Source: a virus
Taxonomy: Duplodnaviria; Heunggongvirae; Uroviricota; Caudoviricetes
IMG/VR virus record: IMGVR_UViG_2537561575_000012
Strand: one strand, 5' to 3'
DNA length: 23,622 nucleotides
Below are positions 2-9,162 of the stretch, piece after piece; within the stretch, counting starts at the first letter, position 1; each line of letters starts with the position of its first letter. The notes beneath the pieces were generated by a model, which was not told the origin of the DNA, ran no database searches, and worked only from the letters and a program-made list of their open reading frames with translations. A program made the position numbers and the translations under genes.

Positions 2-568
2 TTAGCCTCTTATCTTGAATTCTGCTATAACTTTGCCGATGAATACAAGGTCATTAATGTTCATATCAACAATGATATTCCCATAGTTAATCTTAACTTT
101 ATTATCAGGAATTCTAATAACTTGTTTTATAGAATGCTTTCCATCAATGGAGATTAACCAATCACCATCAACTACATCTGTGAAATCCCTCTCAATAAAA
201 TAAGAGTTATTCCCGTTTGATATCACAGATGGTGATGATAAACCATCAGGAATGAACACCTTGTCAAACATTAGTGTTCCTGCATCCAATAGCACTCCAT
301 CAATCAATTTTATTTTTTGAATATTGATGATGTCAGAAGTTAAATATTCATGTTTAGGAGGTAAGCCTGTTACCAGCCACTTTATGTTTACTCCTGTTTC
401 GAGCGCGCACTGAATAACCCAATCAGAAGGGAATGAATCTCTCATGTAGCGTGTAGCAAGACTGCTTTTTGATATGCCTAGTTGTTCACATAACGCCTGT
501 CTTGTAGTGAACCCATAGGCTTCAACCATCCTTTCGATAGCTTTCTTTCCACCTTGACTAAAATCCAT
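2..568 (-). CDS. cI: CI-type prophage repressor (186 CI-like)
   Basis: ORF 2..673 minus; start placed at internal ATG 568-566 (MDFSQGG...), stop TAA at 4-2, about 188 aa. N-terminal region EAYGF...QL...SSL..RY.R...DW...CALETG.N..WL.TG matches my memory of the P2/186 CI repressor N-terminal domain. Faces the early operon across a 126-bp control region. Confidence 0.75.
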   Translation of the reverse strand: MDFSQGGKKAIERMVEAYGFTTRQALCEQLGISKSSLATRYMRDSFPSDWVIQCALETGVNIKWLVTGLPPKHEYLTSDIINIQKIKLIDGVLLDAGTLMFDKVFIPDGLSSPSVISNGNNSYFIERDFTDVVDGDWLISIDGKHSIKQVIRIPDNKVKINYGNIIVDMNINDLVFIGKVIAEFKIRG

Positions 569-3350: not shown

Positions 3351-4177
3351 AAGAAATGCACCACGGAATTCATCATTTCCATGGGACGCCTGTCTGGGGA
3401 AGTGCTGGCGACGTTCATCGTATTGCGGTGAGCGGAGCTGGCGCTTTCGTCTCCTATGTACGACCAGATCAGATTGCGGCGTCCATTCAGCACGCTCAGG
3501 TCGTCGGCATTGATAACGGCGCATTTTCTGCATGGGTGCGTGGGCTAAAAATTAACTGGAGTGATTTTTATAAATGGCTCCTGAACTATTACCACCATCC
3601 TAAGGTCGCTTTTTTTGTCATTCCTGATGTTGTGGACGGAGGTGAACGTGACAATGATGCCCTGATAAACGAAGTTCCGAAAATGTTCTACGGGAAGGCA
3701 ACTCCCGTCTGGCATCTGCACGAGTCAATCGATCGGCTTATCGAGCTATGTCGTGAATGGCCTCGTGTCTGCTTTGGATCGTCTGGTGAATATGCGGCTA
3801 TCAGAACTGCGCACTGGCATCGTCGTATGCAGGACGCTTTTGAAGCAATTTATTGCCGACACAATTTCAAAACAGCTGTTCATGGTTTGCGCATGCTTGA
3901 CGGTCGTGTGTTGGGAAATTACCCACTGGCGACTGCCGACAGTACAAATCTTGCCTGCAATGTCCCCAAATTTAATAGCAAATATCCTGAGCTGACGCGG
4001 GCTATTCAGGAGGCTGAGTATTCGCGCAATCTGACGGAAAAGGAGCTGAAAGCTGTCATTCTGAAAAACCGTTGCGCAATTTTAAAAGGTGCAATTGAAG
4101 CTGTTCGCCCACCTTCAGTTTCTGATTGGCTGTCGAATGGTTTGCAGCCTTCACAGCTCGAACTGGAGATTGCGTAA
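3347..4177 (+). CDS. Conserved hypothetical protein, translationally coupled between dam and the replication gene
   Basis: 276-aa ORF; GTG start at 3347 overlaps the dam stop (alternative ATG at 3356); its stop overlaps the next start (TAATG at 4175-4179). No motif I can assign with confidence. Confidence 0.6.
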
Positions 4178-6549
4178 TGAACTACAGCTATTCCTGGAAT
4201 GCTGAGAAAAAAGCAATCAATCCTTACGTAGAGACGGAAGAGCAATCTTCAGTTTCTGCGCTTTCAACCCTGATCGCTCTGTACGCTGCCGATAACGAGC
4301 AGGAACAGCTGCGCCGCGAGGCACTGAGTGATCAGGTCTGGGAGCGTTATTTCTTTAATGAATCCCGTGATCCTGTCCAGCGCGAAATGGAGCAGGATAA
4401 GCTCATTAGTCGGGCAAAGCTGGCGCATGAGCAGCAGCGTTTTAATCCAGATATGGTCATTCTGGCGGACGTTAATGCCCAGCCTTCCCATATCAGCAAG
4501 CCACTGATGCAACGTATTGAATACTTCAGCAGCCTGGGCAGGCCAAAGGCTTATTCCCGCTATTTGCGTGAGACGATTAAGCCATGTCTGGAACGGCTGG
4601 AGCATGTACGCGACTGTCAGCTATCCACTTCTTTTCGCTTTATGGCAAGCCATGAAGGGCTGGACGGCCTGCTGATCCTGCCTGAAATGAGTCAGGATCA
4701 GGTGAAACGCCTGTCCACCCTGGTAGCTGCGCATATGAGCATGTGCCTTGATGCAGCTTGTGGCGATTTGTATGTCACCGATGACGTTAAGCCAGAAGAA
4801 ATCCGCAAGACATGGGAAAAGGTGGCAGCGGAAACCCTGCGTCTGGATGTCATCCCGCCTGCGTTTGAGCAACTCCGCCGGAAAAGAAACCGCCGTAAAC
4901 CCGTGCCCTATGAACTCATTCCGGGTTCGCTGGCGCGTATGTTGTGCGCTGACTGGTGGTACCGGAAATTATGGAAGATGCGTTGCGAATGGCGGGAAGA
5001 GCAGTTGCGTGCTGTCTGCCTGGTCAGCAAAAAAGCATCTCCCTATGTCAGCTATGAAGCCGTGATGCATAAACGTGAGCAGCGCCGTAAGTCGCTGGAG
5101 TTTTTTCGTTCTCATGAACTGGTGAACGAAGACGGCGACACGCTGGACATGGAGGATGTGGTAAACGCCAGCAGCAGCAACCCTGCGCATCGCCGCAATG
5201 AGATGATGGCCTGTGTTAAAGGCCTGGAGCTTATCGCGGAAATGCGCGGTGACTGCGCCGTTTTCTACACCATCACCTGTCCGTCACGTTTCCATTCCAC
5301 GCTAAATAATGGCAGGCCCAACCCAACTTGGACAAATGCGACGGTAAGACAAAGCAGTGATTATCTGGTCGGCATGTTTGCTGCATTTCGTAAGGCGATG
5401 CACAAAGCCGGATTGCGGTGGTATGGCGTGCGGGTGGCTGAGCCGCATCATGACGGTACAGTTCACTGGCACCTGTTGTGTTTTATGCGCAAAAAAGACC
5501 GCCGCGCCATCACTGCATTACTGCGTAAGTTTGCCATCCGTGAAGACCGCGAGGAACTGGGCAATAACACTGGGCCGCGCTTTAAGTCTGAGTTGATTAA
5601 CCCGCGCAAAGGTACGCCAACAAGCTACATCGCGAAATACATCAGTAAGAACATTGACGGGCGTGGTCTGGCTGGCGAGATCAGCAAGGAAACGGGGAAA
5701 TCCCTGCGTGATAATGCTGAATACGTTAATGCCTGGGCGTCTCTGCATCGTGTTCAGCAATTCCGCTTCTTTGGCATTCCGGGGCGTCAGGCTTACCGTG
5801 AACTGCGATTGCTGGCTGGTCAGGCGGCAAGGCAACAGGGGGACAAAAAAGCAGGTGCGCCGGTACTGGATAACCCGCGCCTTGATGCCATCCTGGCTGC
5901 TGCTGATGCTGGTTGTTTTGCCACCTACATCATGAAGCAGGGCGGCGTACTGGTTCCCCGCAAATATCACCTCATCAGAACCGCTTATGAAATCAACGAA
6001 GAGCCGACCGCCTATGGCGATCACGGCATTCGTATTTATGGCATCTGGTCACCTATTGCAGAGGGCAAGATCTGCACTCATGCCGTGAAGTGGAAAATGG
6101 TTCGTAAGGCCGTTGATGTTCAGGAGGCGGCAGCCGACCAGGGCGCTTGCGCCCCTTGGACTCGTGGCAATAACTGTCCCCTTGCTGAAAATTTGAACCA
6201 ACAGGAGAAAGATAAATCAGCTGATGGGGACCCCAGAACGGACATTACCAGCATGGATGACAAGGAGTTGCACGAATACCTGCACAGTATGAGCAAAAAA
6301 GAGCGCCGGGAACTGGCAGCAAGGTTACGCCTGGTGAAACCGAAACGGCGTAAAGACTACAAACAGCGAATTACAGACCATCAGCGACTGCAGCTCGTGT
6401 ATGAGCTGAAGTCCAGAGGATTTGATGGCAGCGAGAAAGAGGTCGATTTACTCCTTCGCGGAGGCAGTATTCCGTCAGGAGCAGGCCTGCGTATCTTCTA
6501 TCGGAACCAGCGTTTGCAGGAAGATGATCAGTGGCGGAACCTGTATTAA
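4177..6549 (+). CDS. Rolling-circle replication initiation protein (P2 gpA-like, HUH endonuclease)
   Basis: ORF 4126..6549 with start at ATG 4177; motifs [14 protein letters not shown] (TVHWHLLCF) and double-tyrosine YIAKYISKN typical of phiX174/P2 gpA-type initiators. Confidence 0.8.
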
Positions 6550-6641
6550 TTACGCGGGTTAACAATTCGTACTCTTAATAATACCAGGCATATCAGGCTG
6601 ATGAACGTAAAAAATCGTTTTACATCAGTAAGATTATTATA

Positions 6642-6661
6642 TACTGTAAATATAAACAGTG
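6642..6661 (+). promoter_or_regulatory. LexA (SOS) box upstream of the small ORF/dinI-like operon
   Basis: taCTGTaaatataaACAGtg at 6642-6661 matches the LexA consensus CTGT-N8-ACAG with an AT-rich centre; about 44 bp upstream of ATG 6703. Confidence 0.6.
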
Positions 6662-6702
6662 GTTATGCATACAGCGTTGCGTGTGGTGTCATAGGAGGAA
6701 AG

Positions 6703-6891
6703 ATGCAGGACTATTTTTTGGAGTCTTTGAAGCTCCAGCGCATTGATTTTTTTCTTAAGCTTGTAGCGGCTAGTGAGTGTAGTGATGAAGAGAAGGGGCT
6801 GGCTCTGCAGTGGGTTTCTGAATTGACTGATGAACTCATGGCAAAAATCAGAACCCACGAATACAACCGCTCAATGGATGTCATCAGCTGA
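6703..6891 (+). CDS. Hypothetical 62-aa protein downstream of the LexA box
   Basis: ORF 6601..6891 trimmed to ATG 6703, preceded by AGGAGG. Position parallels the SOS-controlled operon near cos in phage 186; no sequence evidence for function. Confidence 0.5.
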   Translation: MQDYFLESLKLQRIDFFLKLVAASECSDEEKGLALQWVSELTDELMAKIRTHEYNRSMDVIS

Positions 6892-6901
6892 GGTGACTTT
6901 T

Positions 6902-7135
6902 ATGCGCATTGAAATAATGATCGATAAAGAGCAGAAGATTAGCCAGTCTACCCTGGACGCCCTTGAATCCGAGCTTTACCGCAATCTGCGCCCCCTGTAT
7001 CCCAAAACGGTAATTCGCATTCGCAAAGGTAGCTCTAACGGTGTGGAACTAACCGGACTGCAACTGGACGAAGAAAGAAAACAAGTGATGAAAATTATGC
7101 AGAAGGTGTGGGAAGACGACAGCTGGCTGCATTAA
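6902..7135 (+). CDS. dinI: DinI-family protein
   Basis: ORF 6830..7135 trimmed to ATG 6902 (GAGGTGA upstream); 77 aa. MRIEIMIDK...LDALESEL...KVWEDDSWL matches my memory of E. coli DinI (MRIEVTIAK...ALAGEL...ETWESADDW). Confidence 0.75.
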   Translation: MRIEIMIDKEQKISQSTLDALESELYRNLRPLYPKTVIRIRKGSSNGVELTGLQLDEERKQVMKIMQKVWEDDSWLH

Positions 7136-7270
7136 GAAACGTTGCTGGCGTCTGAACTTGCTTCTGGCGTCAGCAAGGTTGAACAACGAGCCCTTGCGAG
7201 GCGTTAGCTCTGTAGTGCATGTCTATGCCGCATGAGATCGCATGATCGTTTGAGGATCGTTTTTGCTAAG

Positions 7271-7295
7271 GCCCGCCAGAACTGGCGGGCTTTTG
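7271..7295 (+). terminator. Rho-independent terminator after the dinI-like gene
   Basis: GC-rich inverted repeat gcccgccag/ctggcgggc (7271-7290) followed by TTTT (7291-7294). Confidence 0.6.
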
Positions 7296-7329
7296 CGTAG
7301 ATCATGCAGGTGCATGAAAACCACTACAT

Positions 7330-7348
7330 AAAGCGGGCAGGCGTGGCG
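7330..7348. other. Candidate cos (cohesive end) site
   Basis: GGCGTGGCGGGGATACGAG; the first 13 nt match my recollection of the 186/P2 cohesive ends (GGCG[T/A]GGCGGGGAAAGCA...). Lies between the replication side and the portal side, as in P2/186. Confidence 0.45.
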
Positions 7349-7510
7349 GGGATACGAGCGCGCGTTAAGCCATATAAGAGTTATATATTGATTTGATTGC
7401 TGGACATACATACAGTATCGCTCTATCATCTAATAAATCTTAGGGTATTTGACAATGTTTGGATAAAATGGAACCTAACTTATTCATAATCCGCTAAACA
7501 GGGATGTCAG

Positions 7511-8425
7511 ATGCCATACCAATTGGTAGAGCTTAGCCCCGTAGCTAACGATCTTGAACAGTTAGGAACCAAAGAGAAGTTTTGGTTCTATTTCTCCGAT
7601 GACACTGTAAATTTGCAGTTGTTTAAGTACTCTAGGCCAGGTACTGGCGAGCATTGGTCTGAAAAGTGTGCTGCTGAGTTATGTCATTTGCTTAACATTC
7701 CACATGCTAGCTATGATTTGGCGCGATACAATGGTCGATTCGGTGTGGTGACTCAGAATATCATTCCATCTGGTTTCCGGATGGTAATGGGAAATGAAGT
7801 GCTTCACAGTTCGACATTCGATTATCCTGGGCCTTTACAAGCCGGGGAAAAGCCGGTAAGGGTCAGAGAACACACTGTCACAAGGGTCTTGGGTTGTTTA
7901 GATAGGGAATCTATCAAGCCTCCTCCGAGTGTATATGATCTAACCGGGCTAAATGCAGCAGATGTATTTTGTGGATATTTGATGCTCGATGCACTTGTGA
8001 GTAATCAAGATCGCCACCATGAAAATTGGGCAATCATGCTTAACAATGAAACTGGTGAGCAGTTTTTGTGTCCAACATACGATCATGCCGCTAGTTTAGG
8101 AAGGGAGATGTTAGATGATGAGCGTAACGAACGGCTTAATACTAAAGATAAAAATCGACAAATCCCATGTTTTGTAAGAAAAGCTCGCTCTGAGCTATTC
8201 AAAGCAAAAACTGATAAAAAGCCCTTGCTGACTGTTGAAGCATTTCAACATGCAGTTGAAGGGAGAGTTGCCGCTCGCGACCATTGGTTAGGTAAGTTGA
8301 GCGTTTTAACAGAAGATTCCATTACAGATGTGTTTAACCAAGTGCCTTCATCGTGTATATCCGACAGTGCACGTAGATTTGCAACGTTAATGGTAATGGA
8401 AAATCGCAGAAGGTTACTAGAATGA
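7511..8425 (+). CDS. HipA-like Ser/Thr kinase, C-terminal catalytic domain only (HipT-like)
   Basis: 304 aa; G-x-x-E-K loop LGTKEKF (aa 18-24), catalytic-loop-like SNQDRHHENWA (aa 164-174) and YDHAAS (aa 190-195) parallel HipA motifs; no HipA N-terminal domain; AGGGA before the ATG; stop overlaps the next start (ATGA at 8422-8425). Confidence 0.7.
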   Translation: MPYQLVELSPVANDLEQLGTKEKFWFYFSDDTVNLQLFKYSRPGTGEHWSEKCAAELCHLLNIPHASYDLARYNGRFGVVTQNIIPSGFRMVMGNEVLHSSTFDYPGPLQAGEKPVRVREHTVTRVLGCLDRESIKPPPSVYDLTGLNAADVFCGYLMLDALVSNQDRHHENWAIMLNNETGEQFLCPTYDHAASLGREMLDDERNERLNTKDKNRQIPCFVRKARSELFKAKTDKKPLLTVEAFQHAVEGRVAARDHWLGKLSVLTEDSITDVFNQVPSSCISDSARRFATLMVMENRRRLLE

Positions 8426-9162
8426 CTAATACAAACTCCGTTTACGTCGCATGGCAGGCACCAGATACCAGAGACTGGCATGTTGTTGGTAACTTGCAAG
8501 AGCGCAAATCGGGGTATGTTTTCAGGTATACCAAAGGTGCTCTTAAATCTTCTAAATTTACAAAGTTTAGCGGCATGAGTGATGTTCGTGAAACTTATGT
8601 ATCGGAAGAATTGTTTCCTCTTTTTAAAAATCGCCTTTTATCACCGAGACGTCCAGAGTATCCGAGTTTCATTAAATGGCTTGGATTTGAAGAAGATAAG
8701 GTAAATCCTATCGATATTCTTGCTCGCTCGGGAGGCTTACGAAGCACTGATCAGCTGCAGATTTTCAAAAAAATTGATTTTGATTCTGATGGTAACTTTG
8801 AGCATTTTTTCTTCTTACATGGACTTGGTTACTTGAATAGCTTAGCTAATGCTCGTGTATCTGAATTGAAACCGGGGCAAATTTTGCGTCTTTGCTTGGA
8901 TCTTCAAAATGAATACGATGGGGATGCTGTTGTCGTTCGTGCAGATAAACCAGCTGAAATCGTTGGTTACTGCCCTAGGTATTTAAGTAATGACATCAAG
9001 AAGATGTTATTGGATGATCCAAAATCAATCACTTTAACGGTCGAAAAGATTAGCGATGATGCTCCTCATAACTATCGGTTATTATGTAAATTATCAGGGG
9101 TACTAAGCCAAGCCTGTCAATCGACGCTGATTCCTCAAGATGAGTTTGAACCTATTGAGTAA
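8422..9162 (+). CDS. HipS/HipA-N-like domain fused to a C-terminal HIRAN domain
   Basis: 246 aa. N-terminal ~120 aa (VVGNL...YVFRY...LFPLFKNRLLSP...NPIDILARSGGL) resemble the HipA N-subdomain and HipS (LFPFFDGLIPEG...). C-terminal aa ~125-215 (ILRLCLDLQNEYDGDAVVVRADKPAEIVGYCPRYLSNDIKKMLLD) fit the HIRAN pattern. Confidence 0.6.
   Translation: MTNTNSVYVAWQAPDTRDWHVVGNLQERKSGYVFRYTKGALKSSKFTKFSGMSDVRETYVSEELFPLFKNRLLSPRRPEYPSFIKWLGFEEDKVNPIDILARSGGLRSTDQLQIFKKIDFDSDGNFEHFFFLHGLGYLNSLANARVSELKPGQILRLCLDLQNEYDGDAVVVRADKPAEIVGYCPRYLSNDIKKMLLDDPKSITLTVEKISDDAPHNYRLLCKLSGVLSQACQSTLIPQDEFEPIE

Follow-up and report, generated by a model that had tools for sequence, protein, structure and literature searches.

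A probable SOS-induction operon of the split-tum form in a 186/Fels-2-type P2-like prophage

Background

P2 itself is not SOS-inducible. The P2-like prophage described here carries, just downstream of its replication gene A, a LexA-like palindrome followed by a 62-aa open reading frame (ORF) and a dinI-like gene, and this arrangement raises the question of whether the locus couples the prophage to DNA damage in its host and, if so, which of the two small proteins is the trigger. The DNA analysed is a 23,622-nt stretch, referred to below as the window, from the IMG/VR virus record IMGVR_UViG_2537561575_000012.

A known system of this kind is the tum gene of phage 186. Tum of 186 has been reported to bind its repressor, CI, and to block operator binding (Shearwin 1998, as cited, including in PMC3121763). 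Lemire 2011 (PMC3121763) noted that Tum resembles an antirepressor fused to DinI, and that tum is split by a stop codon in Fels-2 and PSP3. Antirepressor activity has been ascribed to the upstream gene of PSP3 in a personal communication of G. Christie in Bunny et al. 2002, as cited by PMC3121763. More recently, a P2-like prophage of E. coli HS, DuoHS, was used in an induction study (PMC12055606; Phollow, Nat Microbiol 2025). A split-tum SOS operon of the Fels-2/PSP3/DuoHS kind is thus already described. The preliminary description of the present locus had drawn the parallel with the tum region of 186, but mentioned neither the DinI domain of 186 Tum itself nor the earlier reports of the split form.

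Results

Genomic setting

The window is a P2-like (Peduoviridae) prophage in which replication gene A (gpA; Pfam Phage_GPA) occupies positions 4126-6549 and the morphogenetic genes begin at about 9200. The features discussed below are as follows, with positions counted in the window.

2-568, minus strand: cI immunity repressor gene, 188 aa, presumed target of TumA (Phage_CI_repr 1e-28; Phage_CI_C 1.7e-26)
6619-6624, plus strand: putative -35 hexamer TTTACA of the tum-operon promoter (invariant in six phages with diverged flanks; analogy with p95 of 186)
6640-6647, plus strand: putative -10 region, either TATACT (6640-6645) or TACTGT (6642-6647) (analogy with p95; TATACTGT invariant)
6642-6661, plus strand: LexA (SOS) box, the 20-mer TACTGTAAATATAAACAGTG (consensus match, shuffles and conservation)
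6657-6676, plus strand: conserved element CAGTGGTTAT-N3-TACAG, overlapping the right arm of the LexA box
6693-6698, plus strand: Shine-Dalgarno sequence AGGAGG of tumA, four nt 5' of the ATG (from the sequence)
6703-6891, plus strand: tumA, encoding a predicted antirepressor of 62 aa with homology to the Tum N-terminal domain of 186 (hhalign, DuoHS deletion and dN/dS)
6902-7135, plus strand: tumB, or dinI-like gene, 77 aa (Pfam DinI, PF06183, E 6.6e-23)
7138-7180, plus strand: strong hairpin without a U-tract, directly 3' of the dinI-like stop codon (RNA fold)
7268-7297, plus strand: intrinsic terminator with a GC-rich 11-bp stem, the loop GAAC and TTTT, marking the end of the operon (RNA fold; region z -3.7)

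The immunity region had been thought to look 186-like, and this is upheld by CII (Pfam Phage_CP76), which is 69% identical to 186 CII, and by CI, in which both Phage_CI domains are present and identity is 31% to 186 CI and 47% to DuoHS CI. The layout in which gene A is followed by the tum operon is common to the window, 186, PSP3, Fels-2 and HS.

Between the terminator of the tum operon and the portal gene lies a two-gene cargo (7511-9162) with a promoter-like site at 7401-7429. One cargo gene encodes a HipA_C-like kinase (304 aa) and the other a HIRAN-domain protein (246 aa), and the two match components A and B of the PADLOC candidate defence system PDC-M03 (E 2.1e-122 and 6.8e-93, respectively). 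They occupy the variable P2 'hotspot' position, where other genes are found in HS, Fels-2 and phage 500465-1.

Promoter and LexA box

The 20-mer TACTGTAAATATAAACAGTG differs from the E. coli consensus TACTGTATATATATACAGTA at three positions (17/20 matching) and keeps the CTG and CAG cores intact; it forms a CTG-N10-CAG palindrome with an AT-rich centre, as in LexA boxes of the gammaproteobacterial type. No 20-mer with three or fewer mismatches to the consensus arose in any of 100 shuffles. The embedded 16-mer CTGTAAATATAAACAG at 6644-6659 is the sole match to CTGT-N8-ACAG across the whole window, a minimal pattern that is not significant alone given at least one match in 28 of 100 shuffles. 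The gap to the tumA ATG is 43 nt from the 16-mer, agreeing with the distance of about 44 bp first given, and 41 nt from the 20-mer.

By analogy with promoter p95 of 186, for which TTCACA is annotated as the -35 hexamer, TTTACA at 6619-6624 would be the equivalent -35. Two hexamers can be considered for the -10 region: TATACT, which is the better hexamer and leaves a 15-nt spacer, and TACTGT, which leaves a 17-nt spacer; either of them overlaps the LexA box. The 186 record places the -10 of p95 on TACTGT, the first bases of the 186 LexA site, and by the same analogy we take TACTGT as the putative -10, with TATACT as the alternative. A simple promoter scan did not report the tum-operon promoter, because TACTGT matches at only 3/6 positions and the spacer of TATACT is 15 nt.

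A LexA box with three or fewer mismatches stands just 5' of tum or tumA in 10/10 reference phages, and it is kept even where the surrounding promoter sequence cannot be aligned. It was present in 79/81 window-type and 80/80 186-type loci of IMG/VR, at a fixed distance from the start codon of 41 nt in the former and about 18 nt in the latter. When six phages with diverged flanks and with tumA genes differing at dS ~1 were aligned, the invariant blocks were TTTACA (6619-6624), TATACTGT together with the box, GGTTAT-N3-TACAG and the AGGAGG Shine-Dalgarno sequence. Sequence and conservation alike point to a promoter overlapped by a LexA box, an arrangement expected of Tum and TumA genes, and in this prophage LexA would be expected to bind at 6642-6661. 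A search of the accessible literature turned up no direct measurements of LexA binding to boxes of this type.

The third of these blocks belongs to the element at 6657-6676, whose GGTTAT and TACAG parts are invariant in the six phages and were seen again in the IMG/VR loci. In this element GTG replaces CTG, and it has four to eight mismatches to the LexA consensus among loci, with eight in the window. It is possibly a degenerate second LexA site, and this conserved half-site beside the box might provide an additional level of control by LexA. The element also accounts for the longer leader of 41 nt, compared with 18 nt in 186.

The 62-aa gene

The small ORF named in the preliminary description lies at 6703-6891, with AGGAGG four nt before its ATG. 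It belongs to PHROG 698 ('unknown function') and is named 'hypothetical protein' in RefSeq, and neither Pfam nor PADLOC has a model that matches it. A BLASTP comparison with 186 Tum gave no match, and profile-profile comparison was therefore needed. With hhalign, the ORF aligned to the N domains of 186-type Tum proteins at 96.6% (E 5.9e-10), and at 98.1% (E 6.6e-14) when a more diverse profile was used; both alignments with 186 Tum start from residue 1 and cover 45 columns. A graded series of homologues (ESSI-2-type, Yersinia YenM_324, 06.16-2, annotated as 'tum protein', and ENT90) bridges the window ORF to 186, and TumA and Tum have in common the motif [QE]R[IV]-x-[LFM]-[FI]-x-[KR]-[LM]-x-A-x3-C-x3-[EDK]-[KR]-x-[LIV]-A-[LI]-x-[WL]-[IVL]-[SA]-E-[LIM]. 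The ORF is thus a homologue of 186 Tum's N-terminal, non-DinI part, and it has the position of a tum gene, being the first gene of the operon, just 3' of gene A, in a P2-like genome with 186-type CI and CII. We refer to it as tumA.

Strong purifying selection acts on tumA (dN/dS 0.06-0.12 at dS ~1), and the range over tumA and the dinI-like gene together is 0.03-0.12. An AlphaFold model of TumA (pLDDT 90.7) is a two-helix hairpin with helices at residues 2-23 and 28-61; a Foldseek search of this model against the PDB returned generic helical hairpins only, with no hit at E <= 0.001.

The true gene is the one of 62 aa. Among gene callers, the predicted tumA products vary (62-123 aa), and some records have a 96-aa reading from the ATG at 6601 (e.g., phage 500465-1 gp07). 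We rejected the latter: it starts upstream of the promoter and would contain the LexA box, and HS has no in-frame ATG between the upstream stop codon and the 62-aa start. A few records (a UniRef name and GenBank MK416009) call the ORF a 'levan regulatory (domain) protein', a name for which no support was found here and which is probably a propagated misannotation.

The family of window-type TumA proteins is small, comprising 85 clusters at 50% identity, with protein lengths of 35-130 aa in nearly all cases. ENT90, ESSI-2 and Yersinia phages have stand-alone TumA homologues that are preceded by a LexA box but not accompanied by dinI, which indicates that the N domain works without DinI. Many stand-alone homologues that are not followed by dinI have a glycine-rich C-terminal tail, ...GG-x-SGGG-x-[FL]Q (P0146, P0153, P0156, P0160, P0177, P0179, P0184, P0185 and P0190, and L006, L007 and L008), which window TumA does not have. 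In place of the DinI partner, this tail may serve as a tag or as a motif for interaction.

The dinI-like gene and the end of the operon

The second gene (6902-7135), assigned to the DinI family from the outset, is a full member of it: its product scores 81.3 bits against PF06183 (cut-off 24.2) and aligns over profile positions 1-63 of 63. The protein falls in PHROG 189, matches E. coli DinI (1GHH) at E 2.7e-6 and is 41% identical to residues 71-145 of 186 Tum. Translational coupling is possible, because AGGTGA (6891-6896), the Shine-Dalgarno sequence of the dinI-like gene, overlaps the stop codon of tumA. Among IMG/VR loci, a separate dinI-like gene lies 3' of tumA in 80/81 of the window type, whereas the two are fused in 76/80 of the 186 type.

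The dinI-like product is likely to bind RecA filaments and to adjust how strong the SOS signal is or how long it lasts, which would make it an accessory and not the trigger. For 186, the record states that truncated (DinI-only) Tum 'modulates SOS induction', and in the Gifsy prophages non-polar dinI deletions were without measurable effect.

Two RNA structures follow the dinI-like gene. The strong hairpin at 7138-7180 lacks a U-tract; it is missing from the corresponding site in HS and Fels-2, both of which continue with a third gene. A canonical intrinsic terminator does exist, as had been proposed, but at 7268-7297, outside the interval 6642-7135 in which it had been placed. A simple terminator scan missed it; a 148-bp segment that includes it (window 7217-7364) is also found in Fels-2 and HS, 3' of their third operon gene.

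Related operons

The 186 locus resembles that of the window in several respects. Its tum operon lies after replication gene A and before the portal end, its LexA box overlaps the -10, and it is paired with CI and CII of the 186 family. The N-terminal 45 residues of Tum correspond to the 62-aa ORF and its C-terminal DinI domain, at 41% identity, to the second gene. Tum of 186, however, is a single polypeptide of 146 aa, whereas the window has two cistrons; starts are nested inside the 186 gene, and its shortest product consists of DinI alone. Identity of the N domain to window TumA is only about 20%, the box lies 18 nt from the start codon as against 41 nt in the window, and the 186 operon runs on into orf97 while that of the window ends at the terminator after the dinI-like gene. 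Since both halves of 186 Tum are matched, the window locus is the orthologous tum locus in split form, which goes beyond the parallel first drawn with 186 tum.

In PSP3 the split is annotated as such: tumA is described as 'similar to 5' end of 186 tum; UV induction of prophage' and tumB as 'similar to dinI and 3' end of 186 tum', with a LexA box 20 nt upstream. PSP3 differs in having a longer CI (861-nt gene) and a TumA that forms a divergent branch, which hhalign relates to the 186 type at 85.9% but directly to the window ORF at a probability of only 2%.

Fels-2 and DuoHS are far closer. STM2728 of Fels-2 is identical to window TumA at 61/62 residues, STM2726.1 is dinI-like, and the Fels-2 record refers its DinI gene to PSP3 TumB. 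Both prophages have a DinI-like protein identical to that of the window (77/77) and the same LexA box and spacing, but Fels-2 and HS contain a third operon gene (225-243 aa) before the common terminator, which the window does not. An equivalence of this third gene with 186 orf97 was considered and rejected: the two are not similar, even though the Fels-2 copy equals orf97 in length (243 aa).

Two further systems are related in part. The prophages Gifsy-1, -2 and -3 have a LexA-repressed operon with a small antirepressor (gfoA, gftA or gfhA) and a DinI homologue (plus irsA), acting with an uncleaved repressor; dinI comes first in these lambdoid prophages, in reversed order, and the repressor family is different; the operon logic is the same. 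E. coli DinI (1GHH) belongs to the same Pfam family and aligns over its full length with the window protein, including the C-terminal W-E-x-x-D-x-W helix region, but the window copy is phage-borne and predicted to be co-transcribed with an antirepressor.

Induction genetics of a near-identical operon

One of the checks proposed in the preliminary description, deletion of the 62-aa ORF, has been published for DuoHS (PMC12055606). In that study, an in-frame delta-tum (ECHS_RS04495) and lexA(Ind-) were made in E. coli HS, and with neither were lysis or viral foci observed after mitomycin C. The SOS reporter response of delta-tum stayed normal (PMC12055606), while lexA(Ind-) blocks the whole SOS response and not one LexA site. 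A figure legend of the same paper states that tum 'inhibits pro-lysogenic regulators' (PMC12055606).

The gene deleted there is the counterpart of window tumA. In RefSeq, ECHS_RS04495 is a 189-nt gene for a 'hypothetical protein', followed by the DinI-like gene ECHS_RS04500; the first product is identical to window TumA at 61/62 residues and the second is 100% (77/77) identical to the window DinI-like protein. The LexA box and its spacing are identical as well. The ATG-TGA fusion made with the published primers NHR24 and NHR28 (PMC12055606) takes out the 62-aa ORF alone, and the deletion junctions match the window at 6683-6705 and 6889-6911 with 0 mismatches. In principle, the DinI-like gene downstream might be translated less well in this mutant. 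On this near-identity, the requirement of TumA for SOS induction, demonstrated for the DuoHS gene, would carry over to the present prophage. The earlier suggestion of a compact antirepressor under LexA control is accordingly supported by homology to Tum, by tumA and tumB of PSP3, by the DuoHS deletion and by the conserved box.

Pairing of TumA with CI

Window TumA is 61/62 identical to that of DuoHS while the CI proteins are only 47% identical, and the same looseness was seen among IMG/VR loci. A TumA identical at 62/62 residues is linked to at least 41 distinct CI proteins, including divergent ones of 198 aa and 210 aa. The N-terminal DNA-binding domains of these CI proteins average 77% identity (minimum 54%) and the C-terminal domains 41% (minimum 22%), in a set of loci chosen by TumA identity, which biases the comparison, and for a protein whose N-domains are generally more conserved. 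A similar pattern of pairing with diverse CIs was found for 186-type Tum. The two Tum classes correspond to two distinct CI N-domain signatures, and no CI domain is common to both classes. From these sequence comparisons, the immunity module and the induction module are shuffled independently. The pattern would fit recognition by TumA of a conserved surface on the CI N-domain, for which it is only suggestive.

Discussion

Taken together, the region is very probably a split-tum operon through which a P2-like prophage of the 186/Fels-2 type is induced by the SOS response, and it would encode a TumA antirepressor and a DinI homologue. In a lysogen, host LexA would sit on the box over the promoter -10 and keep the operon off. 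Upon DNA damage, active RecA would promote self-cleavage of LexA, the promoter would fire, and one transcript would yield two small proteins, TumA and the DinI homologue. TumA, a predicted two-helix hairpin, would bind the 186-type CI and keep it from its operators, thereby releasing the early lytic promoter and allowing lytic growth, while the DinI homologue would probably act on RecA filaments and modulate the SOS signal. The need for tumA and for a cleavable LexA was established in DuoHS and CI binding has been reported for 186 Tum, while the homology, the anatomy of the operon and its conservation come from the present analysis. Direct contact of TumA with window CI is what we infer by analogy with these systems, this CI being only 47% identical to DuoHS CI and 31% to 186 CI.

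It is at this last step that another reading carries most weight. TumA might trigger induction without binding CI, for example by acting on Apl, CII, a protease or an adaptor; the presence of one and the same TumA beside 41 distinct CIs, whose C-terminal domains average only 41% identity, speaks for this, as do the equally loose pairing of 186-type Tum and the wording of the legend in PMC12055606, which mentions only inhibition of 'pro-lysogenic regulators'. On the other hand, 186 Tum was reported to bind CI and to prevent operator binding (Shearwin 1998, as cited), the well-conserved N-terminal DNA-binding domains of the CIs (mean 77%) offer a common docking surface, and each of the two Tum classes is accompanied by its own CI N-domain signature, so we regard action elsewhere than on CI as improbable. 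Still less probable is that the DinI-like protein is the real inducer and that the 62-aa ORF is a leader or translational coupler, the deletion of which acts by polarity. The overlap of the dinI-like Shine-Dalgarno sequence with the tumA stop codon would permit such coupling, and the two genes are equally conserved; but LexA-controlled TumA homologues occur in relatives that lack dinI altogether, the antirepressor activity of PSP3 was reported for the upstream gene (as cited above), and non-polar dinI deletions had no effect in Gifsy. Moreover, purifying selection acts on the 62-aa protein sequence, beyond the reading frame, and this protein is homologous to the non-DinI half of Tum.

That the LexA-like palindrome is a chance match in AT-rich DNA, with the operon under some other control, we hold to be next to impossible. 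The minimal pattern CTGT-N8-ACAG does occur by chance in 28/100 shuffles, but the full 20-mer with three or fewer mismatches occurs in none of 100; the box has been retained, at a constant distance, in 79/81 and 80/80 loci and in ten phages with unalignable promoters, and lexA(Ind-) blocks induction of DuoHS, in which the box is identical. LexA control of a split tum operon, with TumA as the antirepressor, is therefore the reading we retain.

The diversity of CIs beside an identical TumA also allows a more speculative proposal, which we consider possible but rather doubtful. TumA may be a broad-specificity 'master key' that docks on the conserved surface of the CI N-domain and could inactivate the repressors of heteroimmune, co-resident P2-like prophages. 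If this is true, a single SOS-induced TumA would act in trans and cause cross-induction, as shown for the Gifsy phages.

Conclusions

The operon is already known as the trigger that renders P2-like prophages of the 186/Fels-2 type inducible by SOS, and in this sense it is biologically ordinary. It is also widespread: an 801-bp region matches 1146/5426 complete E. coli genomes, with 80% or more of the region covered in 735. The value of the finding lies in annotation, as the 62-aa gene is recorded as 'hypothetical', yet there is genetic evidence that it decides prophage inducibility. Together with its LexA box, tumA is a usable marker for predicting which P2-like prophages are inducible.
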